A stretch of DNA of 64,000 bases from Candidatus Cloacimonadales bacterium. Lineage in GTDB: Bacteria > Cloacimonadota > Cloacimonadia > Cloacimonadales > DAONDQ01. Below, piece after piece: positions 4,107 through 59,842 of this stretch. Numbering within the stretch: position 1 is the stretch's first letter; each line of letters opens with the position of its first letter. The position numbers were made by a program, and so were the translations under genes. The notes below the pieces were generated by a model. It was not told the origin of the DNA and made no database searches. It saw only the letters and a list, made by a program, of their open reading frames with translations. The stretch is taken from assembly GCA_963662275.1 (NCBI GenBank), contig OY759316.1:128001-192000 (forward strand). Direction: 5' to 3'.

Positions 4107-4114
4107 AATTTCTC

Positions 4115-8720: not shown

Positions 8721-8725
8721 GTCAG

Positions 8726-29085: not shown

Positions 29086-29421
29086 GGTATACTCTTGTAG
29101 TCTCAGGAAAGTCCCGTAGGGATGACAGATATTAACGCTCGGGTTTTAACCCGGCGATTTGACAATAGTAATCTGTCGTTCAGATGGGAATCAGAATCAA
29201 ACTTTCCCGGCTAATACTTCGACTACGCTCAGTAACCATACCCTCCCTTGCTTTATTCAAGGGAGGGAAATATGATAGGATACTGTTCATAGACCATTCT
29301 TCCCTTCATCTGAAGGGAGGGGTAGGCTTCTTATTTTCCCTCAGCGAATTTCAATTGACAAGAAAAATAAATTTATAGTTTTTGAATGGACGCTGAGAAT
29401 AACCAGTAAATGGAGACGAAG

Positions 29422-30033: not shown

Positions 30034-30038
30034 TATCC

Positions 30039-33963: not shown

Positions 33964-33974
33964 GGGAATTAACT

Positions 33975-36358: not shown

Positions 36359-36386
36359 ATAAAAAAAGGTAAAATAGGAGGTCTCC

Positions 36387-36878
36387 ATGATCGATTCTCT
36401 CGCAACTGCAGCAGCACATGTGGCACCAATAACACCTGAACTTTTCATTGCATGGGCAGGCATGATATTTATGGTTGCCTTATCAGGATTAGGAAGCGCA
36501 ACCGGTACAGTTATGGGCGGTAGCGCTACGATTGGGGCTATCAAAAAAAATGATGATATCTTCGGGAATTGCATGCTGTTATCCGCTCTCCCAGGTACAC
36601 AGGGCTTGTACGGTTTCGGTGCATTCTTCATTCTCAAGGCGAAAATCATGGTCGGAATGCCACTGATCAGCGCTTGCGCAATTTTTGCAGCAGGTGCTAT
36701 CGTGGGATTAGTATGTTATTTTTCAGCAATTCAACAGGCTAAGATCGTTTCTTGTGGTATCGATAGTCTTGGACAAGGTAACGATGTATTCGGTAAAACT
36801 CTAATCCTGGCTGTTTATCCTGAATTGTATGCGATCATTTCCTTCGCAACGGCATTCCTGATCAGTACAATGATCTAG
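36387..36878 (+). CDS. ntpK: V/A-type ATP synthase subunit K (4-TM proteolipid)
   Basis: LPGTQGLYG, SAIQQA and YPELYAI motifs. Confidence 0.93.
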   Translation: MIDSLATAAAHVAPITPELFIAWAGMIFMVALSGLGSATGTVMGGSATIGAIKKNDDIFGNCMLLSALPGTQGLYGFGAFFILKAKIMVGMPLISACAIFAAGAIVGLVCYFSAIQQAKIVSCGIDSLGQGNDVFGKTLILAVYPELYAIISFATAFLISTMI

Positions 36879-44983: not shown

Positions 44984-46575
44984 ACTCAACTAAAGCTCAA
45001 AAGAATGGCAAATCTGTAAATACGCAAGCCAATATGGACAAAACGATTAAATCAATCTGCGATATATTACGCCGCGATAAAGCCAAAGGTGCCCGTCTCT
45101 ATATACCTGAATTAACCTGGATGCTTTTCCTATGTTATCTGGACATCATTGAGATAGAACAGAAACAAAGAGCGCAGGCATTGGGGAAAGACTATTCTCC
45201 GATATTGGAATCACCGTACCGCTGGCAGGATTGGGCTGCGCCATTCGACCGCAAGAAAGACCCTGATGAACTGATTAGGAACCAGGAACAGGGATGGAAA
45301 CGCTGTGAACTCAGCAACAAACGGATGGGTTCCTTCCTCAAGTTTGTGAATGAAGAGCTGTTTCCCCATTTGATGAATCTCGAAAGCAATTTCAATGTGA
45401 CACATAAGCAGCGGATCATCTCTGAAATCTTTAAGACTAAACAAAATACGATCCTCGATTCCGAAAACAACTTGCAGGACGTTTTGGATAAAGTGCATGA
45501 TCTCGCCAATTCAAAGATCGACGACACACACTTGTTTCCTATTTCACAGGCATTTGAAGGCATACTGCCCAGCCTGGGTGAAAAGAAGAATGATGGTGGA
45601 CAGTTTTTCACTCCCCGCGAAGTGATTCGTGTGATCGTGGATATCGTCAAACCAAAACTCGGTTGTACCATCTACGATCCCTGCTGTGGAACAGGCGGTT
45701 TTTTAATTGAAGCCTACAAATATCTCCTGAAACAAAATCCTTCCTCTACCCAACTCGAACAACTCAAAACAGAAGCCTTCTGGGGTAGAGAAGATGCAGG
45801 GGAAGTAATACCTATCCTGTTAGCCAATCTTCTGCTGCATGATATCGATTTGCCCCATATCTGGCATGGTAATACCCTGACCGGTAAAACAACCTATGGT
45901 GAGTTATTTGCAGGTGCTCCCAATCAGTTTGATTATATTTTAACAAATCCGCCTTTTGGCAGCAAAGAGAGCCTTTCAGCCCAGTCCAGGTTTGCCTTTA
46001 AAAGCGGAAAAGCCCAGATTCTCTTTTTACAGCATATTATCGATAGCTTGGCTGATAACGGAGTCTGCGGTATGGTAATCGATGAAGGTGTTTTATTCCA
46101 TACAAAAACCAAAGCGTACGAACAGACCAAACGCAAACTACTGAACGAATGCAATCTGTTTTGTATTATAAGCTTGCCGGGCGGTGTATTTGTTAATGCC
46201 GGTGCCGGTGTTAAAACCAATCTGTTCTTCTTCCAGAAAGGCAAACCAACCAGGAAAGTCTGGTATTATGATATGACCCTCGACGATGAATTCAAAACAC
46301 GAAAAGTCAACAAAGGCACACCTTTTCTCTCTTCCCATTTCAATGATTGCCTCAGACGCTTAGCCCTACCGGAAGATCACCAGGAACGCATCAGTGAACG
46401 AAGCTGGTTCCTGACGATAGCAGAAATTGAAGCCAGAAACTATGACCTGAAAGCTGTGAATAATAATGCTCCTGACTTCTCTGATAAACGTACATCAAAG
46501 GAATTGATTGAAGTGATTCAGAAGGCTCAGGAAGAGATAGGGGAATTGCTTGAACAACTAACAAAGGAGAAGTAA
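44980..46575 (+). CDS. hsdM: Type I R-M N6-adenine methyltransferase
   Basis: GQFFTPR, DPCCGTGGF and NPPF motifs. Confidence 0.93.
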   Translation: MNSTKAQKNGKSVNTQANMDKTIKSICDILRRDKAKGARLYIPELTWMLFLCYLDIIEIEQKQRAQALGKDYSPILESPYRWQDWAAPFDRKKDPDELIRNQEQGWKRCELSNKRMGSFLKFVNEELFPHLMNLESNFNVTHKQRIISEIFKTKQNTILDSENNLQDVLDKVHDLANSKIDDTHLFPISQAFEGILPSLGEKKNDGGQFFTPREVIRVIVDIVKPKLGCTIYDPCCGTGGFLIEAYKYLLKQNPSSTQLEQLKTEAFWGREDAGEVIPILLANLLLHDIDLPHIWHGNTLTGKTTYGELFAGAPNQFDYILTNPPFGSKESLSAQSRFAFKSGKAQILFLQHIIDSLADNGVCGMVIDEGVLFHTKTKAYEQTKRKLLNECNLFCIISLPGGVFVNAGAGVKTNLFFFQKGKPTRKVWYYDMTLDDEFKTRKVNKGTPFLSSHFNDCLRRLALPEDHQERISERSWFLTIAEIEARNYDLKAVNNNAPDFSDKRTSKELIEVIQKAQEEIGELLEQLTKEK

Positions 46576-47456
46576 TGTTAATATCTGGAGGAGCTTCCAA
46601 AGACTTCACATATTATGTTGATCATAATCCAGGGGAAATCCCACATCAACGAGATTTTTGTGAATATATTAAACTACATAGGCCGAATAAAAGAATTTCA
46701 GGACCTGACATCAATCCCATGACTGTTAGGTTATTCTCCGCATATGCAGAAATGGAATTGATAGAATCGGAATACGCAAAGTTCAATTGCTTTTCAGAAG
46801 TTGAGTTTAAATATAAATCAGCTAATATTACCAAAGGAAGTCAACCTCTATCAACGGCTACGGGATCTGCAGTCGTTATTCCAGAAGTCCAAATTAACGA
46901 AGAAATAGAACTTTCTAATTGGAACTATATTAGCTCTTCTCCAAACATCTTTGTTTATCAAAATGACTCATGTAAATTGGTACTTTTCTACATACATAGG
47001 TCATTTTATAATTTTCTATATCATTGTTCATCCGTGTTAGATAGGGTAAAGCGTGAAACAGATACTTTCTATTCGATCATCTTATCCCAAAGAGCGATTA
47101 ATAGAAATATCAGGCATATTTATTTCTTGGATTTATTTGAAAACAAGTGGAAGTATTCCTTTCCAAATTCTGCAGGAGATTCACTAATAACCTCTCTTCA
47201 AACATTGCTCCCATCTAATTGTTATCTAAGAAATTTTAGAGAGTATAGAAATACAATTACCCATGATGGATTCATTAAGCTTCAAGAAGATATGGTGATT
47301 AATAAAATCTACATACAAGATGGTCCCAAAGTACCGACTTTCATTAATCAGATAGATTTGCTATCTTATTTGAATTCTACCTTTTCAGAAATTAAAAATT
47401 TCGTAGATAAATTCTACGAATTAATGCTTCAAGATGCAATCAACGGCAAAATCTAA
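46575..47456 (+). CDS. Putative HEPN-domain protein (Cthe_2314-like)
   Basis: YRNTITH (R-x4-H) after a helical region FLY..SSVLD. Translationally coupled to hsdM (TAATG). Confidence 0.6.
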   Translation: MLISGGASKDFTYYVDHNPGEIPHQRDFCEYIKLHRPNKRISGPDINPMTVRLFSAYAEMELIESEYAKFNCFSEVEFKYKSANITKGSQPLSTATGSAVVIPEVQINEEIELSNWNYISSSPNIFVYQNDSCKLVLFYIHRSFYNFLYHCSSVLDRVKRETDTFYSIILSQRAINRNIRHIYFLDLFENKWKYSFPNSAGDSLITSLQTLLPSNCYLRNFREYRNTITHDGFIKLQEDMVINKIYIQDGPKVPTFINQIDLLSYLNSTFSEIKNFVDKFYELMLQDAINGKI

Positions 47457-47477: not shown

Positions 47478-48281
47478 ATGGGAATAAGTATTGAAAAATA
47501 TAAACAAGATATTGAGGCTTTAATACAAAGAGGTAATTCGCTAGGGATTGCGATAAAAACTGAATGTGATCATAGTCAATTAGCAAATATCGGCAAGACA
47601 CCTGAAGAAATAGAGAAAATCAGAAAATCAATCCCTAATTTTCGAGTAGAATATCAAGCGTGGTATTCAGAAGCTAAAATTCTAATTAGAAATCTATTAC
47701 CTGATAGATTAGATGACTTTGTGAGATATTATGAAAAACCTAAATCAAGAAAGATAATTGATTTCGAAAGCTATAGAATTGAAGACTATCTACAGGGGGT
47801 TGTTGTCACAAATAGTTTCGACGGAGAAGTAATTGTCGGACATTCAGCTGCAATACCATTGTTCTATCAACAAATAGCCATAGTAAAAGCTCTAAGTAAA
47901 CGCTTTCAAAGTTCATTATTTGATATTAAACTTCATCTGCAAGCAGAAATGTTTGATGATGAACTAGATGCTGCTGAGTATTTGTTAATGAATAAATTTA
48001 CTAGAGCTGCCGGAGCAATCGCTGGTGTAATTCTTGAAAGGCATCTCAAACAGATATGTTTAAACTATCAAGTTACATTTGGGAATAAGAAAAACTTAGT
48101 TATTAGCGACTTGAATGATGCCTTAAAGAAAGCTAATATCCTTGAAACATCTGATTGGAGAAGAATTCAGCTTTTAGGCGATATTAGAAATAATTGTGAT
48201 CATGATAAGAAAACTGAGCCAAAAGAAGCAGAAGTTCAAGAATTGATTGATGGAGTAAAAAAGATCATTAAAACTTACTAG
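47478..48281 (+). CDS. Putative HEPN-domain protein
   Basis: AAGAIAGVILERHL and IRNNCDH (R-x4-H). Strong RBS. Confidence 0.7.
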   Translation: MGISIEKYKQDIEALIQRGNSLGIAIKTECDHSQLANIGKTPEEIEKIRKSIPNFRVEYQAWYSEAKILIRNLLPDRLDDFVRYYEKPKSRKIIDFESYRIEDYLQGVVVTNSFDGEVIVGHSAAIPLFYQQIAIVKALSKRFQSSLFDIKLHLQAEMFDDELDAAEYLLMNKFTRAAGAIAGVILERHLKQICLNYQVTFGNKKNLVISDLNDALKKANILETSDWRRIQLLGDIRNNCDHDKKTEPKEAEVQELIDGVKKIIKTY

Positions 48282-48302: not shown

Positions 48303-48336
48303 AAAGAGGGCGTGCTTCCGCACGCCCCTACTTTGT
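48303..48336 (+). terminator. Probable terminator after the defence operon
   Basis: gggcgtgc-ttcc-gcacgccc hairpin followed by a T-rich run. Confidence 0.6.
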
Positions 48337-48634
48337 TTACATAACATTCGTTAACATACCCGCTTCAGGAATAACCAATAGCAATCCGACTAGCATAGCA
48401 TCCACTACTGTTATCACAGGATATTCTTGTTTCAGAATATCATCTTTGGTTATGGTTGATAGATCAACTTCAGGTATCTGTCTCTTCAGAGCAAACATCA
48501 TTCTAAGATAGTTGCATAGCAATTAGCAGGTATTTTGTCTGCTAAATCAGTATAATTCTTCATGAGTGCTATGCTTAATATAGAATTTAATGCCCATACA
48601 AAACCAACCATTCAAACAAATTCTTACTAAAGTA

Positions 48635-49336
48635 CTATAAGAACAGATTTTTTAATAAGAGTTTATCTGCTTGCAACGTTTGAGAAAGACCAGTAAAAAC
48701 TACTTTACCAATCTTCATTACATAAGATCTATCGCTAATTTTCAACACATCTGAAACTTTCTGTTCAACAATTAAAATGCTTACCTGTTGGTTTTGATTT
48801 ATTTCGACGATTTTGTTAAATACAGTGCTAACCTTATCGGGTGCTAATCCGAGAGATGGTTCATCTAGCAATAACAGCTTTGGAAGTGTAATAAGGGCTC
48901 TAGCCAAAGCCAACATTTGTTGTTCACCTCCAGAAAGGGTACCAGCATATTGCTTTAATCGATCTTTTACTTCAGGGAACGTAATTAACACATTTTCAAT
49001 ATTTTGTTTTAATAATTTATTAGAAAGATGAATACCACCTAGTTCAAGATTTTCCATGACTTTTAAATCGTTGAATACTCGATTTCCTTGGGGAACATAT
49101 GTTATTCCCATTTTAACATTCTGAGCTGGAGACAAACCATTTATAGTCGAAGAATCGTAAATTATATCACCATTCCATATAGGAATTATTCCGCATATTG
49201 TTTTCAATACAGTTGATTTGCCAGCACCATTGGGTCCGATGAGTGCTATAATTTCGCTTTCTTTAACTTCCATTGATATATTATAAAGAACTTGTTTCAA
49301 ACCATAGCCTGTTTCGAGATTTTTGATTTCCAACAT
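48635..49336 (-). CDS. livF: Branched-chain amino acid-type ABC ATPase (LivF-like)
   Basis: GPNGAGKST, LSGGEQQM, LDEPSLGLAP and VEQ motifs. Confidence 0.9.
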   Translation of the reverse strand: MLEIKNLETGYGLKQVLYNISMEVKESEIIALIGPNGAGKSTVLKTICGIIPIWNGDIIYDSSTINGLSPAQNVKMGITYVPQGNRVFNDLKVMENLELGGIHLSNKLLKQNIENVLITFPEVKDRLKQYAGTLSGGEQQMLALARALITLPKLLLLDEPSLGLAPDKVSTVFNKIVEINQNQQVSILIVEQKVSDVLKISDRSYVMKIGKVVFTGLSQTLQADKLLLKNLFL

Positions 49337-49344
49337 TATGAACC

Positions 49345-50100
49345 TCAGTGCAGATAAGTCTCAATAACCTTTGGATCATTTCTAACGAAATCTGGTTTCC
49401 CTTCACTAACGATCGTTCCACTATCCATGAATATTACACGGTCACAAATCTTCATAACAGCATCTAAATTGTGCTCTATTAGTATCACAGTCTTGCCTAG
49501 AGAAGGTAAACTCTTTATAATTGTGAGCATGGATTCGATAGTTTCAGGAGCTATTCCAGCAACGGGTTCATCAAGCAAAAGGACTTCAGATTTTGCAGCT
49601 AGACAACAAGCGATAGTTAGTAGTTTTTGCTGTCCATAAGATAATTTTTCAGCTGGATCATTTACCTTATTCCAGATACCCATTTCTTTCAATAACACCA
49701 TTGCTTCAATTTTGTTAGCAGTTTCTTGTTTTAAACAGTATTTCCAGTTAAAGAGAGTTCTATGCAGTTTTTCCCCCGGCTGGTTCTGAAATGCTAAGAG
49801 AACGTTATCCAAAACGCTTATTTGTTTAATAAGACGAAGATTCTGGAATGTCCTACTGATTCCAAGTCTTGTAATCCGAAAAGGGACAGCATTTGTAATA
49901 TCTTTGCTTTTAAAGATCACTTTCCCGTTATCGGGTATTACGAATCCACTTATTATATTAAAGAGAGTAGTTTTTCCTGCTCCATTGGGTCCTATTATTC
50001 CTAAAATCTCTCCTTTTTGTAAAGAGCAGGAGAAACCAGAAAGGGCACAAATTCCATTGTAACTTTTGTCCAGTAGCTGAATGTCAAGGATCCCGACCAT
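49345..50100 (-). CDS. livG: Branched-chain amino acid-type ABC ATPase (LivG-like)
   Basis: GPNGAGKTT, RTFQ, LSYGQQK, DEPVAG, IEH and DPKVIETYL motifs. Confidence 0.9.
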   Translation of the reverse strand: MVGILDIQLLDKSYNGICALSGFSCSLQKGEILGIIGPNGAGKTTLFNIISGFVIPDNGKVIFKSKDITNAVPFRITRLGISRTFQNLRLIKQISVLDNVLLAFQNQPGEKLHRTLFNWKYCLKQETANKIEAMVLLKEMGIWNKVNDPAEKLSYGQQKLLTIACCLAAKSEVLLLDEPVAGIAPETIESMLTIIKSLPSLGKTVILIEHNLDAVMKICDRVIFMDSGTIVSEGKPDFVRNDPKVIETYLH

Positions 50101-50101
50101 T

Positions 50102-50983
50102 TTAGAGTTTTCCTTTCAAAAATGAATATTCGCCGATGAGACCTCTAGGTCTCCATAACATAAATGCAACAAGCAAACCCCCGTAGATAATTTGTCTAAA
50201 ATTAGCAGCTATGGAACTTGGAAGTCCAATGAAACGCAAAATCTCAGGTAGAATCACAAGAAGAACTGAACCAATAACTGGTCCCCACATGCTACCTGAG
50301 CCTCCAATTATTACAATAGAAATCATGAAGATAGATTCCATTACAGTGAAACTGGTTGGATCTATAAAACTAATGTAATAGGCAAATAAAACTCCAGCAA
50401 TTGCAGCTAAGGCAGAGCCGATTGTGAAGACTAAAATTTTATATGAAGCTACATTTTTTCCTGTTGCTTGGGATAAAACTTCATCTTCACGGATCGCTTT
50501 CAACACACGCCCAAATGGTGAAATGATAATTCGTTTAATGAACAAGAAAGTAAAAGCACCAAAAAAAGAAACAAGTAGAAGAAAGCCAAATGTCGTGGAA
50601 AACTGTATCCCGAAAATTGATGGAATTGGAATACCCGGTAAGCCAATAGGACCACCTGTAAAGGAAATCAAATTGTTTAATATATTGAAAGAAATTACCT
50701 GCAATGCGAAAGTAGCAATTACAAAATAGTCATCTTTAATTCTGAGAGTCGGAATACCAATCAATGTACTAGAAACAATGCTAGTTACAATAGCAAAACT
50801 GAGCGTTAAAATGAAAGGACTATGGAGTTTTATTGATAACAGTGCAGCGGCATAGGCACCGATACCATAAAAAGTTGCATGAGCTATAGAAAGCAAACCT
50901 GTGTAGCCCATGATTAGGTTTAGTGATATTGTAAGAATAGAATAAATACCAATTAAAATAAAGATATGTATCAAATACTCCAT
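50102..50983 (-). CDS. livM: Branched-chain amino acid-type ABC permease (LivM-like)
   Basis: SLNLIMGYTGLLS.AH, GR.LKAIREDE and IGGSGS motifs. Start MEYL at 50983. Confidence 0.9.
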   Translation of the reverse strand: MEYLIHIFILIGIYSILTISLNLIMGYTGLLSIAHATFYGIGAYAAALLSIKLHSPFILTLSFAIVTSIVSSTLIGIPTLRIKDDYFVIATFALQVISFNILNNLISFTGGPIGLPGIPIPSIFGIQFSTTFGFLLLVSFFGAFTFLFIKRIIISPFGRVLKAIREDEVLSQATGKNVASYKILVFTIGSALAAIAGVLFAYYISFIDPTSFTVMESIFMISIVIIGGSGSMWGPVIGSVLLVILPEILRFIGLPSSIAANFRQIIYGGLLVAFMLWRPRGLIGEYSFLKGKL

Positions 50984-50993
50984 TCTATATCCC

Positions 50994-51875
50994 CTACACC
51001 TCGGTTTTGAGAAATTGTTTTCGAAAAATACCTTTTGGACGTATAGCAAGAAAACTTAACAGCAAAATAAAAGCAGTTACTTCCCCCCACTGTGCTCCGA
51101 ATTGCCAACCAGCTATCTGCTGTAGAGTTGCTAAAATGAATGAGATTAAAGCAATTGAACAAGTTTTCCCATTTCCATTTATCACAACAACAACGATACC
51201 TAGCAATAGCATAGGTAGACCCATCGTCGGTGTCATTCCAACATCGTAAGCTTGAAGAATTCCAGTTGTACTCGCAATAAAAGAACCTAAGCAGAAGCAA
51301 ATTCCAGTAACTTTGTCTATTTCAATCCCACTTATCTTTGCTAACTCTTGATTGTTAGTTATTGCCCGCATAATTAAGCCAATTTTGGTTTTATCGATAA
51401 ATAAAGTCTTTGAAAGTAGAATGATTATCGCAAAACCGATTAGAATCAATTGGATGGGTGTAATCAAAGCTCCAAATAAATTGAGCGCTGGGGTAATTGA
51501 AGCGTTGCTAATTATTTTTGTATCGTCCCCGAATAGCAAAGATATCACATTCTGAATAACTGTATAGAGACCAAGGGAAGAAAGTAAAAGGACTAAAGAG
51601 GACGCATCTCGATGTCTCATTGGCCGATATACTGCCCAATCTAATAACCAACCTAATCCTGTTCCTGCTATTAACGCAAGAGGAAAAGCAGCATAGATTG
51701 AGAGGTGAATGACCTGAGAAAAAGCAAAAAAACTGTAGGCTCCAAATGTGATGATTACAGCATGAGTAAAATGAAAGAATCTAACTGCTGAGAATATTAT
51801 AGAGAAACTGCTACTTATAAGAAAGATTATGGAAGCAGAAATTAGAATATTTACAATGAATTGTTCCAATACCAA
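50994..51875 (-). CDS. livH: Branched-chain amino acid-type ABC permease (LivH-like)
   Basis: FHFTH, G..MRA...N..LA..SGI and RPKGIF motifs. Confidence 0.88.
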   Translation of the reverse strand: MVLEQFIVNILISASIIFLISSSFSIIFSAVRFFHFTHAVIITFGAYSFFAFSQVIHLSIYAAFPLALIAGTGLGWLLDWAVYRPMRHRDASSLVLLLSSLGLYTVIQNVISLLFGDDTKIISNASITPALNLFGALITPIQLILIGFAIIILLSKTLFIDKTKIGLIMRAITNNQELAKISGIEIDKVTGICFCLGSFIASTTGILQAYDVGMTPTMGLPMLLLGIVVVVINGNGKTCSIALISFILATLQQIAGWQFGAQWGEVTAFILLLSFLAIRPKGIFRKQFLKTEV

Positions 51876-51878
51876 TCC

Positions 51879-53351
51879 TTAACGTCCGATATTTTCACAT
51901 TCGGCGCTTGTATCTTGTTGTACAAAATCTAACCACTCTACTTTATCTAAAATCAATCCTAATTGTAGAAGATAGGTTGCAAACTCCTGGTAACTCTCTA
52001 AATAATCAGGATATTTCTGAATCATCTTTCGAACTTCATATGAATAATTTACTGACCCATAGAAGGACTGATAAAGAAATTCTTTAATTTTGTTATACTC
52101 CGAAATTGAAATTCTTGAATTGTAAACAACAGGCATACTGACTGTATCAAAATCTTCCCAATTATTAGTTACCAGTAAGTTTTGATATGACACCCAGTCA
52201 TCAGTTCCAGGGAAAGGGGTAAAATAACTAATTTTGATTTCATTAGTATTTAATTTCTCAAGAAAAGTGGTCATAGTTTCTAAGAGATATTCAGGTGTTT
52301 CCCATGGAAATCCGATAATAAGGAAAACTTTTGTGATTATTCCCAGATCATTACACTTGCTGAATAGGCAATTCAGTTCGTCAAGACTGGCACTATCATT
52401 GTGTTTTAGTGTCTTACGCATTTTTATGTCAGCTGTTTCAACGCCAAAACCTATTTTACTACACCCCGCGGAAGCCATATCTTCAAGTAGAGTCATATCC
52501 AATGATGTTTTAGCCATGCAGAACCATCTTGCTTGTTCAGGAATTCCAGATTTCTGTAACTGTTCACATAGTTCATAAGTCCATTTTTTATCTTCTCCAA
52601 ATGCTTGATCTATGAATACTAACGAGTTGCAACCGGAATCAATAATAACTTTTTTAATCTCATTCACAGCAGAATAAGGTGTTCGAGTAATTAGTTGTGA
52701 ACCCCATACTAAATGAGAAGCACAAAATGAACAGTTGTTGTTACATCCTCGCGATAAGAGAAAAGACGCTGCCCCCGTCTGAATTGACGGTGATGGAAAC
52801 ATTAGTCCACGAAGTCTGCAGTTCTGTATATCCTTGACGCATCTCAATGGAGATGGTTGATTATCTAACAATTGGATTCTTTCCGCTCGAAGAACTTTTG
52901 ATTTTCTTGCAATTACAGATCTTGTTTCTTTGTTAGAAAGCTCATACATTATACTCAGAATAGCTTCCTCCCCTTCTCCAACAACAACATAATCGAACAA
53001 CTCAGTACCTGAATCTGCTGGTAGCGCGCTTACATGATAGCCTCCAACAATTAAAATAGACATTGGACTAATTCTACGAACTTGAGAAGCTAACGAGATA
53101 GCTTTGGGCCACTCAGATGTAGTTGCTGAAAAAAGAAGTATTCTTGGAGTATATTGTACTAAAAGCAATGCTTCCTCAGCTGTTACGGTTTTTAAAGAAA
53201 AATTCACCTTTTGTAAAACTGCTGCTATTATGTTATGAGTTAAAGTAGTTGGGTAATCATTAAGTAAATTTGGCATAATTGACTCAAGGTCAATCCAAAG
53301 CAAATCTTTCATTTCTAACTGCATTAAATTACTTGGTTTTATCTTGTCCAT
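51879..53351 (-). CDS. B12-binding radical SAM enzyme (class B methyltransferase-like)
   Basis: VGGYHVS and VVVGEGE (cobalamin-binding domain), SRGCNNNCSFC, GVET, IIGFPWET and TPFPGT. Confidence 0.9.
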   Translation of the reverse strand: MDKIKPSNLMQLEMKDLLWIDLESIMPNLLNDYPTTLTHNIIAAVLQKVNFSLKTVTAEEALLLVQYTPRILLFSATTSEWPKAISLASQVRRISPMSILIVGGYHVSALPADSGTELFDYVVVGEGEEAILSIMYELSNKETRSVIARKSKVLRAERIQLLDNQPSPLRCVKDIQNCRLRGLMFPSPSIQTGAASFLLSRGCNNNCSFCASHLVWGSQLITRTPYSAVNEIKKVIIDSGCNSLVFIDQAFGEDKKWTYELCEQLQKSGIPEQARWFCMAKTSLDMTLLEDMASAGCSKIGFGVETADIKMRKTLKHNDSASLDELNCLFSKCNDLGIITKVFLIIGFPWETPEYLLETMTTFLEKLNTNEIKISYFTPFPGTDDWVSYQNLLVTNNWEDFDTVSMPVVYNSRISISEYNKIKEFLYQSFYGSVNYSYEVRKMIQKYPDYLESYQEFATYLLQLGLILDKVEWLDFVQQDTSAECENIGR

Positions 53352-53444
53352 AATAGTGCATATTTCTGAAAATTTAGTTCATGAATACACCATAGAGAAA
53401 TACAAGAGTTTGAATGGGAATGAACTTTTCTTTCTCTCACTTGA

Positions 53445-54608
53445 TCACTCTATTGCATCAAATAAAAGTTGACTATCTGAATCCTTAGTAATTGTCACTC
53501 CACAAAATTCTATTGGTTTAGAATCAGATTGATTTTCAATTCTCTCCAAAAGGCTGGCAAGTTCCTCAGCAGACATGGTTTTGGTCTTCATGAAGCAATT
53601 ATCGAACAGTTTCAAGTATTTATGTTCTGGTTCGAGAATCAGAGTACATAATTTTTCTTCTCCATTAACTCTTACATCTGTAGAAGCTTCTGTGGGATCA
53701 TTCCATTTAATAACCGCTTTCTGGTCAAACATCTGATAATCAACGTTAGCTAAGCCACAAGAACAATATGCTTTGCACAGTGTTTTTTCATATGCAAATC
53801 TAGTAGATATACTATAATCACTCATTTTCATCGAAAACCTTAGAAAACATTTTAACGCCTGACGGTTATTAATACTGAAAAAATCGTTAAGTTTATTTTC
53901 TGCTATTATCACGAAACGCTTTTTCACTTCTGTAACATTAGCACTTAAAAATGCCTTGGCGTGAGGTGGAAAATCGTTAAAATCAAGTTGATCAGTAAGT
54001 GCACGTTTACGTTTTTCCGGAGATTCTTCAAATACATTCTCAAACCACTCTTTCGGAGTATATGGGCATGTCATATATATGGACTTATGTGTGAATGGTA
54101 ACAACTCATTAATTATCTCTGAATACTCTGTAGCACTGGTTACTATTTGAATTTTTGTGGGAGATAGAAAATCTTTGCTTAATTTATGCGAAATAAATAA
54201 AGGAACAATCCACTTAGTTTTTGTCGGGATATTTTCTGATAAACGAAGGAGACTCTCAAAATTACCTTCATCTGTATGGAATGCTACGTATGGAGATAGA
54301 CGATCAAGAGAGTTCATAATATGTGAAAAATATTTCTCTTTAAACTGTATGTCTATATCATTAATTAATTCCTTTGTTTGTTTTCTATCAATTATTCTTA
54401 TTAATCCTAGAATATTATCTGAAATAAGTGCACAGAGACTTATGATGATAAAGTTCCAAGTTCCTATTCCTAAGCATTTAGGAACTGTCTGATGAGCAAT
54501 AATAAGTCCAATGATTATTCCAACACCATATTTAGATATCCGATATAGAGTATTCCAAGTGTGAGTACTAGATTGGTTGTTTTTCTGTTTTCGCTTTTTA
54601 TTACTCAT
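53445..54608 (-). CDS. Membrane protein of unknown function (2 N-terminal TM helices + ~300-aa soluble domain)
   Basis: 387-aa ORF beginning 2 nt after the rSAM stop codon, with two hydrophobic segments at about residues 28-72. Confidence 0.75.
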   Translation of the reverse strand: MSNKKRKQKNNQSSTHTWNTLYRISKYGVGIIIGLIIAHQTVPKCLGIGTWNFIIISLCALISDNILGLIRIIDRKQTKELINDIDIQFKEKYFSHIMNSLDRLSPYVAFHTDEGNFESLLRLSENIPTKTKWIVPLFISHKLSKDFLSPTKIQIVTSATEYSEIINELLPFTHKSIYMTCPYTPKEWFENVFEESPEKRKRALTDQLDFNDFPPHAKAFLSANVTEVKKRFVIIAENKLNDFFSINNRQALKCFLRFSMKMSDYSISTRFAYEKTLCKAYCSCGLANVDYQMFDQKAVIKWNDPTEASTDVRVNGEEKLCTLILEPEHKYLKLFDNCFMKTKTMSAEELASLLERIENQSDSKPIEFCGVTITKDSDSQLLFDAIE

Positions 54609-54609
54609 A

Positions 54610-55752
54610 TCACCTCCATTCTTCTATATATTGAGTAACATCAAAATCACTCAGATCAACAAAGATGCATGATGTCTTTTGTCCATTTATGAATCTTTTA
54701 TGCATTGGTCCTCCATCGCAGTATGCCCATTCTGAACACTGAACACAATCACCTGTTTTTCGCCAAGATGCATCTCGGAAAATCTGATACCGGTTTTCCC
54801 AAACTTCATGAATATTGTCTGTGCGAAGATCTCCCTGTATAAAATCTCTTGATATGTTACTACATGATGCAAGTTTACCATCGAATAGAATGCCCAGGTT
54901 ATTCAATCCTGCAATACAGTGAAAAATAAAAGGTCGCACACGTCCTTCAAGTTCTGTACCAAGCCATCCACCACATCCAAGTTCTACCATTGTTGAAGAT
55001 GGATTCGAATAAGTTGAACAAGAATTATCATATTCCTTCTTAAGAAAATCAATCACTCTCAGTAATTGGTTTGGTTTAAGGAGGTGATCAGAATTCTCTT
55101 GCACACGTCCCATAAGATCAATAAACATTACACGAAAAACTCGAGGTTTTATCTCATCCTTGACAAATTTAAAAAACGATTCAAGTTCATTGATATTGCC
55201 TGAATGAGCAACGAACGAAACAGTTACAACATAGCCCGCTGCGACTGTAAGTTGTGCAGCATTAACTGCTTTTACCCATGTCCCTGGTATTCCCCTGAGG
55301 GTGTCATGAGATGATTCGAATCCATCAATACTGATGCCTAATCCAGTAACTCCGAGGTTTTTTAATTCTTTGAGGATAAATGGGTTTTCCGAAATAAAAA
55401 CTCCATTCGTCTGGATATCTATATTTCTATAATAAGGCCAGCGATTGATAGTTTGCAGGATTGTAAGTAGGTCGTTTCGAACAAAAGGCTCTCCGCCAGT
55501 GATATTTATATGCCGAAAATGGTTCATATCGAAATCTTGTGCGATTTCGTTAAAAGCTTCAATAATTTCATATTTCGTTAGTTCAGAAGCAATATCAACT
55601 TCTTCAGAAGGAGAACCACAATGCGAGCACATAAGGTTGCATCTTCGAGTAGCTTCCCAACTAATGATTTGGAGAGGATGCTCCTTCTTAAGGGTTTCTA
55701 TTCGAGATTTCCAATTTTCAAAGAGTGGTTTTAAAACCTCATAATCTGTCAT
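54610..55752 (-). CDS. Radical SAM/SPASM-domain enzyme
   Basis: CNLMCSHC, TGGEP, TNG and SIDG..SHD..RG. SPASM region C-x12-G-x4-C ... CVQCSEWAYC. Confidence 0.92.
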   Translation of the reverse strand: MTDYEVLKPLFENWKSRIETLKKEHPLQIISWEATRRCNLMCSHCGSPSEEVDIASELTKYEIIEAFNEIAQDFDMNHFRHINITGGEPFVRNDLLTILQTINRWPYYRNIDIQTNGVFISENPFILKELKNLGVTGLGISIDGFESSHDTLRGIPGTWVKAVNAAQLTVAAGYVVTVSFVAHSGNINELESFFKFVKDEIKPRVFRVMFIDLMGRVQENSDHLLKPNQLLRVIDFLKKEYDNSCSTYSNPSSTMVELGCGGWLGTELEGRVRPFIFHCIAGLNNLGILFDGKLASCSNISRDFIQGDLRTDNIHEVWENRYQIFRDASWRKTGDCVQCSEWAYCDGGPMHKRFINGQKTSCIFVDLSDFDVTQYIEEWR

Positions 55753-55928
55753 TATGCAAAAACTTGATCGAAATAATCGTTATTCTCATCATCAGGATGG
55801 CTTCCATACATGTTGTTGACGTATTCTACTGGATTCGACCACTTGAGCATTCTTCTTTTAAATTCGAGTACAGAATCTTTATTTTTTACGGCGGGTGCAT
55901 TGTTGTCCATCTGTGTAGTGTTTGACAT
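55752..55928 (-). CDS. Unannotated 58-aa peptide, putative radical-SAM substrate (RiPP precursor)
   Basis: AAGGAG RBS, then MSNTTQMDNNAPAVKNKDSVLEFKRRMLKWSNPVEYVNNMYGSHPDDENNDYFDQVFA*. The stop overlaps the rSAM start (TAATG) and the ORF fills the livK-rSAM gap. Confidence 0.78.
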   Translation of the reverse strand: MSNTTQMDNNAPAVKNKDSVLEFKRRMLKWSNPVEYVNNMYGSHPDDENNDYFDQVFA

Positions 55929-55940
55929 AAGATAATCTCC

Positions 55941-57062
55941 TTATTTTAAGTTAACAGGTTGACCATTAATAATAGTCTTTTTTGCAAATGATTCTGAAAA
56001 AAGATCTCCGTTTGGACGAAAAGCGATTTCGCCAGAAACGCCCTGAAAAGTAACTCCTAAAAGTGCAGAGCGAATCTTTTCAGTGTTGATTGAATTTGCA
56101 GTTTTCACAGCTTTGAAAATCGCCATAGAGGCATCGTAAGCATAGGCTCCAAGTACATCTGGTTCTTCACCATATTTGGTTTTGTATTTCTTAGCGAATT
56201 CGATGAAGCTTGCAGTTTTACTATCAGATGGCGCAGTATAAAAAACACCTTCCGCAGCTTTTCCAGCTATTGTGATAAACTCGGGGGAACCCCAGTTATC
56301 ACCCCCGAAAAGGGGTAAGTTAAGTCCAAGTTCTTTCATCTGTCTAACAAAGACTCCTCCTTCTTTAGGATAAGTTGGAGAGACAATGGCATCGATGTTT
56401 TTCATTCTTTTAAGTTTAGTTATAATTGTACGAAAATCTGTTGAATTTTCTTCCACTCCTTCAGCATGTACTACCTGACCTCCTAATGCTTCAAACTTGC
56501 TTTGAAATCCTTCAGAAAGTGGTTTACCCCAAGCGTTATTTGAAAATACAATCGCAACTCTCTTTTTCCCAATTCCGTATACCCATTTTGAGAGTACTTC
56601 AGCTTGTTGATCATCAGCGGGACAAGTTCGGAAGAAATACTCCCCACCTTGAGTAGATAACTCAGTAGATGATGCTATTGGAGAAATTAATATAACCTTG
56701 AATCTGCTTGCTAAAGGTGCTATAGCTAGACATACGCCACTACCTGCAGAGCCAAATACAACCGGAATTTTATCAATAGAAGCAAATTTTGTCATAATAC
56801 TGACAGCTTCTTTCTTATCATTACGGTCATCCTGAAAATCAACAACAACCTGTTTCCCAAGAAGACCTCCTTTTGCATTCTGGTCTTCCACAGCCATTTC
56901 AATTCCTCGTTTTGCTTTTTGACCATATGATGCTACTTCGCCAGTTAAAGGGAAGGTTGCACCGAAAGTGATCGTGTTTGTTGTTTTATGCCAGGGATGA
57001 AAAATAATTAGTCCAGCAACAATGACTAGCACTAAAATGATAGGCCAAATTGAATTTCTCAT
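55941..57062 (-). CDS. Periplasmic binding protein, LivK/LivJ (HAAT) type
   Basis: N-terminal anchor, PLTG..ASYG, GGLLG, FFRTCP.D..Q and AYAYDA motifs. Confidence 0.9.
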   Translation of the reverse strand: MRNSIWPIILVLVIVAGLIIFHPWHKTTNTITFGATFPLTGEVASYGQKAKRGIEMAVEDQNAKGGLLGKQVVVDFQDDRNDKKEAVSIMTKFASIDKIPVVFGSAGSGVCLAIAPLASRFKVILISPIASSTELSTQGGEYFFRTCPADDQQAEVLSKWVYGIGKKRVAIVFSNNAWGKPLSEGFQSKFEALGGQVVHAEGVEENSTDFRTIITKLKRMKNIDAIVSPTYPKEGGVFVRQMKELGLNLPLFGGDNWGSPEFITIAGKAAEGVFYTAPSDSKTASFIEFAKKYKTKYGEEPDVLGAYAYDASMAIFKAVKTANSINTEKIRSALLGVTFQGVSGEIAFRPNGDLFSESFAKKTIINGQPVNLK

Positions 57063-57239
57063 TAGAGTTCTCCTTTTTGAACATCAATGCAAAACATAAT
57101 TTCATTCTTATCACATCGATTTTTCATGTCAATTAGTTTTTATTATTGCTTGCATCCCCAAGTTATTTTTTAAAGGAAATACCGATTCGCGTCCTTTTGT
57201 GGGGCAATTGTAATTGGCAGAAAAGAGCATCAAACTCTC

Positions 57240-59137
57240 CTGGAGGTGTCCCGTAACTAGCATTAATCTATTTGCTTATTTTGTAAAATATATGATTGTT
57301 TTTAGATGTACACTAAATTACTCAATAGTTTCCGAAAAGCGATGCAAAGACAAGGAAAATGGAGTAATATTTACCTAATTCATGTTTGAATTCTGGTAGG
57401 AAGAGTCTTCATTAGGCTTTTCCTTCAGTATTTTGTAAGTGTAGAAACATTTTCCCTATATTATGTCCTAAAAAGAGGAGGTATAACTGTTCCTTGCATT
57501 TTCTCAATGAACGGACAGTAAATCTCTCAAACTTCCTGTTCCACTTCATGAAAGCAAATACAGCCTCCGGTTCGATGCCTCTTTGCTTTCTCAGCTTGTC
57601 GCCTTTTTCAGAAAGCAGATTATTGACGGTCTGACGTTTTAGGGGAGCTATATGAGGATCGTAGGTCAGCAATTTATGAGTTTTATCCTTGTAGGGAATA
57701 CACTTTTTATTGTGAGGACATTCTATGCAGTCATTACATATATAGGTTTTCACGATTCGTTTCGGACCGTTCTTCTCTGTCTCTTCTTCCTTGATTTTGA
57801 CCAGTCTCCGATTAAATTGACAGCCCCACTCATCATGCTCCTCATCATAGCTAAAGCCTGTCAGAAGAGAGTCCCGATAATCTCTCTTATAATCCTGGGT
57901 CTTGAGATAGCTTGTTATCTCTTTTTCAGCAGCATAATTCAAATTCAGCGCAGTGCCATAGGCAGCATCTCCAACAACGTCGGTAGGATATTGTCCCAAT
58001 TCATCATGCATTTGCTCCATGAGATTGGGAAATTCAACGGTTTCTTTAGGGATATTGAATAAGTGAATGCCTGTGACAAATTGCTCTGAAGTTCCGATAC
58101 TGGCAACATAACCCGGTGCCAGCTGTCCATTTTTCAATCGCATAAATGTGGCATCATTATCAGTCTTGGATGTGCTGCTGCGTCCTTCTCCAATTATCTC
58201 AAGCTGTTGCTCATATTTCTCCAGCTTAGTTATATCATTGCTCTTTGATTTGGAGATTTCGCGCAAAAGAGATTTGATTTTCTTGATAGCCCGAGTATCT
58301 GACGGATGATTTTTCTGTAGTCGGGACATTGCTTCTTTCAGCTTGTTTTCTGCTGAGACCAGTCTATCTCTGATCTGTTCAGATGCGACTGTAGCAGTTT
58401 TCTCTGATTCAACCGCATGCAATTGCTCACCAAGCTCAAGAAGATCAGCGGTTCCATATTGCTGTTGCTCTTCCTGATTATATTCCTCGATCTTTTTAAA
58501 CAATCCCTCAACTCGTGTCTTGACCAGTTCCTGATAACGAAGCGCATTGCTTTTCCAGATGTAGGAATTCTTGCCGGCATTTGCGTGAATCGTCGTCCCG
58601 TCAACAAAACAGGTGTCGAGATCAAGATATCCTAATGATGATGCTTTCAGTACTACCTGATAAAATACATCAATAAGAATATCAGAACACTTAGTCCAGG
58701 CAAAGGTGTTGATCGTTCTGAAATCAGGTTCCTGTTCTCCTGCCAGCCAGATAAAATTGATGTTCTCCCGAACAGCCTTAGCTATCTTCCGACAGGTATA
58801 AATACCATTGATATAGGCGTATACAATGATCTTCAACATCATCTTGGGATGATAAGCAGGTGTACCTTCATCAGAGTATCTTGAGTATAGCTCAGTTAAG
58901 TCCAGTTGCTCAATGATATCGTTAACATAACGAACCATATGTTTGGGGGGTATTTTTTCGCTTATATTAAGCCCGAAAAGAGTACCCTGATCCGGGTTGT
59001 GTTCTCTGAAATTCATAGTGTCTCTCTATACTTAGTTTTTAAAGGCAATAATACACCATAGAACAATATGTCAAGATATATAACTAATTATTTAATAGTT
59101 GCTATTTTTCTATCATTTAGTTTCGGGACATCTCCAG
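57240..59137 (-). mobile_element. IS1182-family insertion sequence
   Basis: Transposase bounded by ~20-bp inverted repeats ctggaggtgtcccgtaacta / tagtttcgggacatctccag. Exact ends are approximate. Confidence 0.85.
57412..59016 (-). CDS. IS1182-family DDE transposase
   Basis: G.PAYHPKMMLK, PDFRTI, VDGT.I.ANA, TDNDATFMR, GDAAY and R..EPEAVF motifs. Confidence 0.92.
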   Translation of the reverse strand: MNFREHNPDQGTLFGLNISEKIPPKHMVRYVNDIIEQLDLTELYSRYSDEGTPAYHPKMMLKIIVYAYINGIYTCRKIAKAVRENINFIWLAGEQEPDFRTINTFAWTKCSDILIDVFYQVVLKASSLGYLDLDTCFVDGTTIHANAGKNSYIWKSNALRYQELVKTRVEGLFKKIEEYNQEEQQQYGTADLLELGEQLHAVESEKTATVASEQIRDRLVSAENKLKEAMSRLQKNHPSDTRAIKKIKSLLREISKSKSNDITKLEKYEQQLEIIGEGRSSTSKTDNDATFMRLKNGQLAPGYVASIGTSEQFVTGIHLFNIPKETVEFPNLMEQMHDELGQYPTDVVGDAAYGTALNLNYAAEKEITSYLKTQDYKRDYRDSLLTGFSYDEEHDEWGCQFNRRLVKIKEEETEKNGPKRIVKTYICNDCIECPHNKKCIPYKDKTHKLLTYDPHIAPLKRQTVNNLLSEKGDKLRKQRGIEPEAVFAFMKWNRKFERFTVRSLRKCKEQLYLLFLGHNIGKMFLHLQNTEGKA

Positions 59138-59183: not shown

Positions 59184-59642
59184 TCACATCACATGATCCA
59201 GCATACTTGCTTCCTCAATTTCCACCAGCAATCCGTTTTGCATACTCTCTACAACTGATCTCATCGGATATTCATTCTGCACTATCTCTTCCCTGGTGAT
59301 AGTCGCCAGATCGATCTCAGGGTGCAGTTTCTTCAGTTTCCACAGCATACCGGTGAACAGGGCGGAGCCGGAAGCTGGTAGTTTATCGTTATTTTCTGGC
59401 AACGTGGAAAACAGCTTTGCATAGCAGGATAAATCCAACTTATACTCCGCTGAGAGTGTTTTGTACATCTTATGCAGATGTTTGGTGATTGTGCCAAAGA
59501 TGTGATGATGGGCTTTTATGGTCGGTTCGGGTAAGGTCTTGGCAATGACGACTTCCCCGTTTTTATAACTGCTGTAGTATAGTTCTTCCTTGCGGTTTGT
59601 TCCGCGGAAGGATTTTACTGCGTGTTTGAATGTAGTTTTCAT
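59184..59642 (-). CDS. Hypothetical 152-aa basic protein, paralogue of 38173..38631
   Basis: Same length and motif pattern as 38173..38631, with an AAGGAG RBS. Confidence 0.75.
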   Translation of the reverse strand: MKTTFKHAVKSFRGTNRKEELYYSSYKNGEVVIAKTLPEPTIKAHHHIFGTITKHLHKMYKTLSAEYKLDLSCYAKLFSTLPENNDKLPASGSALFTGMLWKLKKLHPEIDLATITREEIVQNEYPMRSVVESMQNGLLVEIEEASMLDHVM

Positions 59643-59658
59643 TTTAGTCTCCTTTTTT

Positions 59659-59829
59659 TAACCACGAAACACACTAAAAACACGAAAAGCAGAGCAGAGA
59701 AGATTAATTCTAAACTTGTAATCTTGTTTTAACGAAAGTCTAATGTATCTAAATATAATCTGATTTTCAATACTCAACAAAATACATAAAAATCTCTTCT
59801 TTCGTGTATTTCGTGTGTTTCGTGGTTTA
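59659..59829. repeat. MITE-like element with ~30-bp imperfect terminal inverted repeats
   Basis: aaccacgaaacacactaaaaacacgaaaag ... ctttcgtgtatttcgtgtgtttcgtggttt. Confidence 0.75.
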
Positions 59830-59842
59830 ATTCTATCTTCTC

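Follow-up and report, generated by a model that had tools for sequence, protein, structure and literature searches.

A probable horizontally moving cassette that places a peptide, probably matured by a radical SAM enzyme, within a Liv-type importer operon of a Candidatus Cloacimonadales bacterium

A 64,000-nucleotide stretch of the genome of a Candidatus Cloacimonadales bacterium (assembly GCA_963662275.1, contig OY759316.1, positions 128,001 to 192,000; the window in what follows) contains, at positions 48635-57062, a run of nine genes that probably represents a horizontally moving cassette, in which a ribosomal peptide matured by a radical S-adenosylmethionine (SAM) enzyme is built into a dedicated importer operon of the HAAT type. 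The components are of known kinds: a HAAT importer, a radical SAM/SPASM enzyme paired with a peptide, and a radical SAM enzyme of class B. Their combination is apparently new and was found described nowhere in the literature covered. It comprises the conserved embedding within the importer operon, a partner protein with a phospholipase D (PLD)-like fold, the lack of an exporter, a peptidase or a RiPP recognition element (RRE; RiPP, ribosomally synthesised and post-translationally modified peptide), and an invariant peptide core. An earlier note, made from the DNA letters of the window, had described the region as a cassette for peptide maturation lying within the operon of a Liv-type ABC importer, a description that is supported by the gene content and by the recurrence of the same order in other loci.

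All nine open reading frames (ORFs) were found intact, at the coordinates given by the earlier note, as a tightly packed run on the minus strand. The first gene (55941-57062) encodes a HAAT/Liv-type substrate-binding protein of 373 amino acids (aa) with a Pfam Peripla_BP_6 domain (198.9 bits) and is followed by the gene for a 58-aa peptide (55752-55928), the probable SPASM substrate, which has no Pfam or NCBIfam family. Next come the genes for a radical SAM/SPASM enzyme of 380 aa (54610-55752; Pfam Radical_SAM and SPASM), for a membrane-tethered protein of 387 aa (53445-54608), which is likewise without a Pfam or NCBIfam family and whose PLD-like fold is predicted from a structural model, and for a class B B12-binding radical SAM enzyme of 490 aa (51879-53351; Pfam B12-binding 38.9 bits and Radical_SAM 44.3 bits). 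The run ends with the rest of the importer, which consists of a LivH/UrtB-type permease (50994-51875; BPD_transp_2, 93.5 bits), a LivM/UrtC-type permease (50102-51049; BPD_transp_2, 152.7 bits), a LivG-type ATPase (49345-50100; ABC_tran and BCA_ABC_TP_C) and a LivF/UrtE-type ATPase (48635-49336; ABC_tran, 110.8 bits).

The spacing of these genes is close throughout. The binding-protein gene is separated by 12 nt from the peptide gene, which has a Shine-Dalgarno sequence (AAGGAGA) 7 nt ahead of its ATG and whose stop codon has one base in common with the start codon of the SPASM gene (TAATG). A single nucleotide lies between the SPASM and membrane-protein genes, 3 nt between the B12-binding enzyme gene and livH, 1 nt between livM and livG and 8 nt between livG and livF; the largest gap, between the membrane-protein gene and that of the B12-binding enzyme, measures 93 nt, in agreement with a previous estimate of about 95 bp. 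The livM gene overlaps livH only with its listed TTG start, and an in-frame ATG at 50983, which coincides with the position at which the alignments of livM orthologues begin (from residue 17-23), is likely to be the true start. A sigma-70-like promoter candidate (TTGACA-17-AAGAAT, 57104-57132, minus strand; 10/12 match) is located some 40 nt ahead of the start of the binding-protein gene, within a scan that overall returned 32 sites against 36 expected in shuffled sequence and hence carries no statistical weight. At the other end, 307 nt past the livF stop, there is a GC-rich hairpin (48307-48328), terminator-like on both strands, with 7 G-C pairs among its 9 and a T-rich tail behind it. Since the junctions are of 12 nt or less with one gap of 93 nt, and the run has one promoter-like site and one terminator-like hairpin, the nine genes would be expressed as a single transcript.

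The same arrangement is found well beyond the host. A search with the SPASM protein recovered 7 orthologous loci from species genomes (L001-L007) and 42 from metagenomes (L019-L060), with enzymes that are 55-74% identical to that of the window, and five more remote loci at 31-35% identity. The named genome loci come from Sedimentisphaerales, Thermoguttaceae, Zixibacteria, a deltaproteobacterial SEEP-SRB2 metagenome-assembled genome (MAG) and two Bacteroidetes MAGs. Near-duplicates exist among the 49 loci (L043-47 with L056/57, L037/38 and L053/54), so that locus counts overstate their independence. Of the 41 loci that have at least 200 nt of upstream DNA, 40 have the peptide gene immediately ahead of the SPASM gene, the sole exception being L050, where an IS630-like transposase now stands in place of the peptide gene and of the initial 24 SPASM codons. 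A binding-protein gene is directly upstream in 28 of 30 loci with at least 1.5 kb of upstream DNA (the exceptions are L053 and L055), and livH is found downstream in 20 of 25 loci with at least 3.5 kb on that side; in the L043-47/L057 group an insert intervenes and the distance to livH is 7.6 kb. The conservation of the nested order and of the short ORF, which had been put forward for checking, is thereby upheld, and chance falls far short of explaining an arrangement whose gene order is repeated in dozens of loci belonging to other phyla. Nor are such enzymes rare: at E <= 1e-60 the SPASM enzyme is matched by 255 protein clusters, which have generic source names only and whose organism labels are all of MAGs.

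The peptide was aligned across 38 unique orthologues of 47-76 aa. A variable N-terminus (residues 1-20) gives way to a C-terminal part, some 40 residues long, that is conserved and in which 11 residues are invariant (P33, V34, E35, V37, N38, N39, Y41, G42, H44, P45 and Y52) and R26, M27, L28, W30, N32, M40 and F53 are kept in at least 90% of the sequences. The invariant core can be written as PVE-x-VNN-x-YG-x-HP (P33-P45) and is preceded by a helix (F22-W30), and the peptides end in F-A/F-x-K or in longer tails; no lipobox is present in the window peptide. When 35 unique nucleotide versions of the core are compared in pairs over its 13 codons, they differ on average at 0.54 first, 0.60 second and 6.76 third codon positions, and because the substitutions concentrate at third positions the ORF is considered to be translated and under strong purifying selection. 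A chance ORF was rejected on the basis of this bias together with the 11 invariant residues. Only 10 clusters of the peptide are called as proteins among 5.8 billion, probably owing to the rare annotation of short ORFs. Cores that are invariant across phyla are typical of cofactor precursors such as PqqA and MftA rather than of antibiotic RiPPs, and the invariance of this core across at least five phyla would be the signature of a cofactor or of a conserved physiology, not of an antibiotic.

In the SPASM enzyme, the predicted catalytic motifs are intact: the radical SAM triad C38, C42 and C45 (CX3CX2C) is invariant in 34 unique orthologues, as are seven further cysteines at positions 260, 279, 297, 336, 339, 345 and 362. 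Modelling of the enzyme together with the peptide gave ipSAE values of 0.89, 0.89 and 0.85 in three runs, the best control reaching 0.02. This mark is reached by 116 of 157 solved complexes versus 2 of 215 mismatched pairs, a calibration that holds only roughly here because own alignments were used, and part of the score may be memory, given that solved radical SAM-peptide complexes exist. The runs have at least 61% of their contacts in common, with a partner pLDDT of at least 59. In the models, residues 16-44 and 53-58 of the peptide contact enzyme residues 3-21, 80-81, 110-112, 136-137, 175-177, 204-205 and 241-285. Within this interface the peptide helix (modelled as residues 23-29) packs on enzyme residues 10-14 and 269-276, and peptide residues 31-44 reach residues 80-81, 110-112, 136-137, 175-177 and 204-205, at the strands of the barrel. 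The complex model thus supports binding of the enzyme to the peptide without demonstrating it, and cannot distinguish a substrate from a subunit that is tightly bound. We are fairly confident that the peptide is the substrate of the SPASM enzyme.

The site at which the enzyme might act is suggested by its relatives. The best NCBIfam family for the enzyme is TIGR04133, at 229.1 bits against a cut-off of 425 (orthologues, 225-240.5 bits), and the PqqE and MftC models give 72.5 bits against 381.35 (TIGR02109) and 84.3 bits against 265 (TIGR03962), respectively. A true TIGR04133 member occurs in the outgroup locus L009, where it scores 589.2 bits and is encoded behind four tandem TIGR04134 lipoproteins. 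Lipoproteins of this family, one to four in tandem, are found upstream of TIGR04133 at L008:3752-4234, L009:4367-6052 and L062:8304-8753, and in all three loci with upstream DNA they carry, close behind the lipobox Cys, the motif E-Y-G-[CM]-P-[HY]-A. TIGR04133 and TIGR04134 are both hypothetical equivalog models, that is, uncharacterised, and the E-Y-G-[CM]-P element is a candidate modification site for this orphan Bacteroidota family. The Tyr-Gly pair that is common to the cassette peptide and to TIGR04134 points to the site of action, and a single chemistry could cover two orphan families.

A precedent for chemistry at Tyr-Gly is provided by the tyramine spliceases, SPASM radical SAM proteins that are described as excising C8H9NO from the peptide and leaving an alpha-keto-beta-amide (PMC11414181, PMC11626197, PMC9811515, PMC10533398, PMC11002830). 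Their native sites include Met-Tyr-Gly and Leu-Tyr-Gly, within X-Tyr-Gly, and the binary spliceases (RhaX/RcsX/RasX) operate without a Y protein, the helix of the precursor binding to the enzyme and the Tyr-Gly site lying in the active centre of the structure models (PMC11414181, PMC11626197, PMC9811515). By analogy, the tyramine spliceases are the best functional counterpart and the cassette enzyme may work like one; that splicease-type chemistry specifically takes place at Tyr-Gly is a tentative proposal, to which we would give somewhat less than an even chance. Two other reactions were considered and rejected. A Cys thioether of the sactipeptide or ranthipeptide kind does not fit as the conserved reaction, since residue 43, the only Cys position, is Cys, Ser or Ala, and a decarboxylation of a C-terminal Tyr, as in mycofactocin, does not fit because the invariant Tyr residues are internal.

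The modelled location of the invariant P33-H44 segment, inside the barrel and not only on the enzyme surface, also speaks against a different role for the 58-aa product, namely that of a small activating SPASM subunit resembling the Y protein of cyanobacterial spliceases, with the enzymes then tailoring an imported amino-acid-like solute. In favour of such a subunit, neither an RRE nor PqqD is present, and conservation is uniform over some 40 residues, as would befit a protein partner; the peptide helix moreover docks, in the model, where the activator helices of spliceases are described as binding (PMC11414181). The occurrence of Tyr-Gly in the presumed protein substrates of the sister family speaks for a substrate instead. 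SPASM enzymes encoded beside a translationally coupled short ORF are nearly always peptide maturases. The membrane-protein relatives described below that are fused to EgtD-like amino-acid N-methyltransferase domains, and a B12-binding enzyme that is dispensable while the peptide core is invariant, would again suit a pathway acting on a small solute, and on balance we regard the subunit role as quite unlikely.

With the substrate role of the peptide preferred, methylation is, judged from predicted gene functions, the second constant theme of the cassette. The B12-binding enzyme has an N-terminal B12-binding domain and a Cys-x3-Cys-x2-Cys motif in its translation, and is a probable methyltransferase. 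Its best NCBIfam model is HpnJ, at 105.4 bits against 577.6, with TIGR03975 at 50.5 against 281.85, and it falls within no characterised subfamily among HpnJ, BchE, PhpK and the RiPP C-methyltransferases. Orthologues of 33-48% identity are present in 12 of the 25 loci with enough downstream DNA, and the enzyme is thus not a fixed part of the cassette. In some loci it is replaced or joined by class I SAM methyltransferases, which are found in L001, L002, L023, L031, L039, L043-47, L050, L055, L056 and L060; in at least 10 loci these are free-standing or fused to the middle protein, and they are sometimes encoded between livH and livM. Whether or not the methyltransferases act on the peptide is, in our estimate, evenly balanced.

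The protein encoded between the two radical SAM enzymes consists of two N-terminal hydrophobic helices followed by a predicted cytoplasmic PLD-like domain. In the AlphaFold2 model (pLDDT 86.6), residues 149-349 adopt a PLD/Nuc fold, for which VIA-align ranks NucT first (6ehi; Z 10.3, rmsd 3.4 over 135 residues, model range 149-347); the 21 best rows, with Z from 10.3 to 7.1, consist entirely of chains of the PLD superfamily. Foldseek agrees on the fold (E 1.1e-5), and the structural matches include TrmB, FAM83 and MITD1, in which the PLD fold is non-catalytic and serves to bind a ligand or a membrane. The catalytic HxK(x)4D (HKD) motif is absent from the family: H216 is conserved in 69 of 74 sequences, the +2 position is R, I or K, and there is no correctly spaced Asp. 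Because of this absence the protein is probably a binding or tethering module. Its conserved residues are T180, P185, W188, H216, R231 and D290.

A profile of this protein finds 149 representatives among 1.84 billion proteins, and a search of the ESM Atlas with the PLD-like domain returned only clusters named 'hypothetical protein', with scores of no more than 0.92. Among 36 long relatives scanned with Pfam, 22 carry an EgtD-like Methyltransf_33 domain and one carries class I methyltransferase domains. In other loci, the gene after that of the SPASM enzyme belongs to two further families, of 509-659 aa (long) or 299-455 aa (D). The window-family profile matches 6 of 10 members of the former and 4 of 6 of the latter at E <= 1e-3, and has no match to the B12-binding enzyme or to methyltransferase-only proteins. 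In profile comparisons the long and D families are unrelated to each other and each is weakly related to the window family. We infer that the long and D proteins would have the PLD fold as well, and take the PLD-fold protein to be a universal, fast-evolving component of the cassette.

Two further observations concern the accessory genes of other loci. A fourth accessory family, of 327-630 aa and with 30-34% identity to the L019 member, has GGW/GWTSG-type repeats and no Pfam match; it is found in four cassette loci (L019:11316-12533, L030:14219-15385, L034:5085-6068 and L049:4189-6081), sometimes between livH and livM. In the divergent variant at L055:6740-9216, a class I methyltransferase and the peptide are followed by two tandem SPASM paralogues, which are 43% and 55% identical to the window enzyme.

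The importer is complete for a HAAT system, with one Peripla_BP_6 protein, two BPD_transp_2 permeases and two ABC ATPases. The binding protein has an N-terminal hydrophobic anchor or signal without a lipobox Cys, and its closest solved chains are Leu/Ile/Val-binding homologues (4n0q, E 1.5e-44). Orthologues in other loci have 50-76% identity for the binding protein and 58-69% for LivM. All five transporter proteins score under the cut-offs of the Liv/Urt equivalogs, as illustrated by the binding protein (166.6 against 477), LivM (178.3 against 366), LivG (212 against 362) and the livF product, which gives 214 bits with UrtE (cut-off 285.8) and 198.7 bits with LivF, likewise below cut-off. Y46, S105/S108, S131-S132, Y231 and D255-x-W257 are invariant or nearly so in 29 unique binding-protein orthologues, and these positions presumably align with the alpha-amino-acid anchors of LivJ, which we take to be Tyr18, Ser79, Thr102, Tyr202 and Glu226. 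The ligand is likely to be amino-acid-sized and yet specific to the cassette system.

A ligand of this size is one of the grounds on which the product of the pathway has to be placed inside or outside the cell. The earlier note had envisaged a methylated, amino-acid-sized cofactor or signal that is re-imported or scavenged. In the corresponding alternative, the peptide or part of it, once modified and methylated, is released to serve as a signal, cofactor or scavenger and is then taken back through the binding protein and LivHMGF. The position of the binding-protein gene as the first of the operon, linked to the peptide in 28 of 30 loci, would make sense on these terms, as would an importer dedicated to the cassette in a host with no other LivM-type permease, and methanobactin-like peptide products have re-uptake binding proteins. 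HAAT binding proteins, however, take amino-acid-sized ligands, the closest solved relatives here are Leu/Ile/Val binders, and the Tyr, Ser, Tyr and Asp positions of the presumed LivJ anchors are kept. Nor is there an exporter, a leader peptidase or a signal sequence in any of the 49 loci, and it is the whole 40-residue C-terminal part of the peptide that is conserved, not just a short excisable core. With no release or export step encoded, the exported product is neither supported nor refuted, and we consider re-import unlikely. The previous statement that no peptidase, exporter or PqqD gene is visible applies generally: no Pfam or NCBIfam domain for an RRE/PqqD, a leader peptidase or an exporter was found in the window cassette, in the middle genes of related loci or in conserved flanks, and no locus has a conserved gene of this kind within its cassette or next to it. 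The preferred reading accordingly keeps the modified peptide in the cell, where it would remain because no exporter or leader peptidase is encoded.

One flank of the cassette is formed by a type I restriction-modification (R-M) system (hsdR/S/M, 41391-46575) with a HigB-like toxin, and the other by an IS1182-like transposase of the DDE_Tnp_1_6/DUF772 type (57412-59016) plus an IS110 transposase, so that the location between a defence operon and IS1182 was correctly called on both sides. The GC content of the cassette is 0.359 against 0.3905 for the genome, within the lowest 4.5% of 2186 equal-sized windows; the description of the region as visibly AT-rich is true in this sense, and the difference is modest. 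Among 40 host relatives (one same-genus and 39 same-order genomes) none has a SPASM orthologue, the best non-self match having 25% identity (E 9e-14). The same-genus genome keeps the higBA-like genes, hsdRSM and the next ORF at 67-75% nucleotide identity, and synteny stops at about position 48274 of the window, immediately before the cassette. The search of the host genome found no LivM-type permease besides that of the cassette and only one distant Peripla_BP_6 paralogue, at 24% identity.

Across loci, the GC content of the SPASM gene spans 0.31-0.61, and the pairwise identities of the binding proteins correlate with those of the SPASM enzymes (Mantel r 0.39, a value reached in 0 of 2000 permutations). 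No further gene family is conserved at the cassette flanks, and the unit is therefore taken to run from the binding-protein gene through livF. There are no long direct repeats around the cassette, and hence no target-site or composite-transposon signature. Given its absence from all 40 relatives and the lack of a second LivM-type permease in the host, the cassette looks like a self-contained, mobile unit.

These data also dispose of a resident operon. The LivM of the cassette is the sole LivM-type permease, with one distant Peripla_BP_6 paralogue in the genome, and thus the liv genes are not an interrupted resident operon; insertion into such an operon was rejected because there is neither an orthologue in the 40 relatives nor a second LivM. 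That the neighbourhood is a matter of chance, a RiPP cassette having landed in a resident liv operon without a functional link, is accordingly extremely improbable. Insertion sequence (IS) elements and a defence island do lie at the flanks, and toxin-antitoxin inserts are found inside the operon in L007 and L034, but the same nested order is present in Planctomycetota, Zixibacteria, the deltaproteobacterial MAG, Bacteroidetes and others, and the Liv genes are 41-76% identical between cassettes.

Inserts of several kinds are seen within the cassettes of other loci. A nucleotidyltransferase gene paired with that of a 136-aa protein sits between livH and livM in L007 (13517-14531), a Phd/YoeB toxin-antitoxin pair sits between livM and livG in L034 (7887-8389), and the IS630-like transposase of L050 (1-380) truncates the SPASM gene; the interior of the operon hence tolerates insertions. 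In the window, a 61-aa ORF between livF and the terminator-like hairpin (48337-48522, minus strand) is a C-terminal fragment of a multi-copy family of the host, with at least 10 copies in the genome by tblastn at 42-58% aa identity. A 152-aa ORF beside the IS1182-like element (59184-59642, minus strand) is another copy, so that members of the family flank the cassette and the IS together; the family was not found in the other cassette loci. A 31-nt inverted repeat, 90% complementary (59657-59687 and 59800-59830), matches at least 12 contigs of the same-genus genome at 83-97% identity, and is therefore a dispersed repeat of the repetitive extragenic palindrome or miniature inverted-repeat transposable element type.

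A working model can be assembled from these parts. All nine genes would be expressed from one transcript, and the 58-aa peptide, once translated, would be handed to the SPASM enzyme, in keeping with the stop/start overlap of their genes. In the complex model, the helix F22-W30 docks on the N-terminal helix of the enzyme and on strand 269-276, placing P33-H44 in the barrel, where the enzyme would modify Tyr41-Gly42. Excision of tyramine from Met-Tyr-Gly to leave an alpha-keto-beta-amide appears the most likely reaction, the next option being a cross-link of the Tyr, for example to Glu35. The B12-binding enzyme, for which class I methyltransferases substitute or to which they are added in other hosts, would then methylate the peptide, with Val37, Asn38 and Asn39 as candidate sites. 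The PLD-fold protein, held in the membrane by its anchor and with the domain facing the cytoplasm, would bind or tether beside the transporter. The importer would supply a solute resembling an amino acid, and the cell would need the modified peptide in order to use it. A more specific version, which we regard as a distant prospect, is that the matured peptide, instead of being secreted as a natural product, is a reactive cytoplasmic cofactor or carrier, such as an alpha-ketoamide produced through tyramine splicing at Met-Tyr-Gly, which captures the imported solute for tailoring on this scaffold by the B12-binding enzyme and the SAM methyltransferases while held at the membrane by the PLD-fold protein.

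Besides the limits of the promoter scan and of the complex model given above, several findings weigh against a matured peptide tied to its importer. The SPASM enzyme falls below the curated cut-off of every named family, its score with the splicease model TIGR04103/IPR026482 (96.7 bits against a cut-off of 725; orthologues, 93-119) is no better than those with heme-related SPASM families, and the reaction chemistry is inferred from motifs only. As the B12-binding enzyme is missing in 13 of 25 loci while Val37, Asn38 and Asn39 are invariant, its target may not be the peptide. The gene order is also not without exception: the divergent L053/54 and L055 are without an adjacent binding-protein gene or have another order, and L051 and L058 place livG/livF upstream of the binding-protein gene.

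If the functional link is true, the modification of a ribosomal peptide would be connected to the uptake of a solute. The peptide might then carry a cofactor that serves an imported compound, or the genes might form a loop, of a new kind, for salvage or signalling. To our knowledge, the logic of a ribosomal scaffold pathway fed by a dedicated importer has not been described for any RiPP-like system. The pairing of radical SAM/SPASM enzymes with short peptides has given PQQ, mycofactocin, sactipeptides, darobactin and spliceotides, and each pairing so far has brought new chemistry. The host genome is complete, as a single contig of 4.38 Mb, and may give an experimental handle.

Elsewhere in the window, two ORFs of 293 and 267 aa without a Pfam or NCBIfam family (46575-47456 and 47478-48281, plus strand) follow directly after hsdM and may be accessory genes of the R-M or defence locus; the second is kept beside hsdM in the same-genus genome, at 71% nucleotide identity. 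At 24183-29085 (plus strand), a 549-aa protein with MutS domain V only precedes one of 991 aa that matches DUF6209 weakly, and the pair, which adjoins a Mu-like transposase (20626-22170), may be another mobile or defence module. A signalling cluster at 2081-11118 contains an M48 peptidase, a PP2C phosphatase, a Ser/Thr kinase that is fused with RCC1 repeats, and proteins of the VWA-FHA and zinc-ribbon-FHA types. The FGE-sulfatase/CHB_HEX_C genes at 6760-8091 and 16976-20437 both encode large proteins. The V/A-type ATPase operon at 29410-36878 (plus strand), with a DUF2764 subunit, is ordinary and informative on the host lineage.

Compared with known systems, the importer has the same five-part composition as LivJ/K-HMGF and UrtABCDE, with one cassette ATPase carrying the LivG C-terminal motif, but in the cassette the biosynthetic genes interrupt the operon after the binding-protein gene and ahead of those for the permeases. 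The PLD-fold protein has its fold in common with the single-domain Nuc/NucT and Zucchini proteins and with the non-catalytic TrmB sugar-binding domain, FAM83 DUF1669 and MITD1. It differs from them in combining the absence of HKD with a two-helix membrane anchor and no match to a sequence family. The SPASM enzyme is 33-35% identical to TIGR04133, and in both systems a presumed substrate with a conserved Tyr-Gly is encoded directly upstream (E-Y-G-[CM]-P in TIGR04134, M-Y-G-[CSA]-H-P in the cassette). In contrast to the TIGR04134 lipoprotein of about 150 aa, the partner in the cassette is a cytoplasmic peptide of 47-76 aa, and the Liv-type importer operon with a PLD-fold protein and methyltransferases is found in the cassette clade only, not in TIGR04133 systems.

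PQQ and mycofactocin biosynthesis likewise start from a short peptide with a core that is invariant across phyla, and the cassette core has an invariant Glu and Tyr. Unlike these pathways, the cassette has neither the PqqD/MftB RRE nor PqqB/C/F or MftD/E/F. The spacing of Glu and Tyr is E-x3-Y in PqqA as opposed to E-x5-Y in the cassette peptide, whose Tyr is not C-terminal, and the C-terminal Val-Tyr of MftA is missing from the cassette peptides. Known spliceotides are thought to be protease inhibitors, and we know of none that is tied to an importer. The likeness to the spliceases lies in the invariant Tyr41-Gly42, in Met40, and in the helix 10 residues upstream that docks in the model. In contrast to PlpX/PcpX systems, the cassette has no Nif11 or nitrile-hydratase-type leader, epimerase or exporter, and its enzyme stands outside TIGR04103/IPR026482. 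The literature yielded nothing relevant on the peptide motif or on TIGR04133, and, in agreement with the earlier note, no description of a characterised cluster with this layout was found in the literature covered, which did not include the survey of 939 predicted splicease systems cited in PMC10533398. Among the systems compared, it is the tyramine spliceases that the cassette enzyme would most closely resemble in function, within an operon whose importer is of the Liv type.

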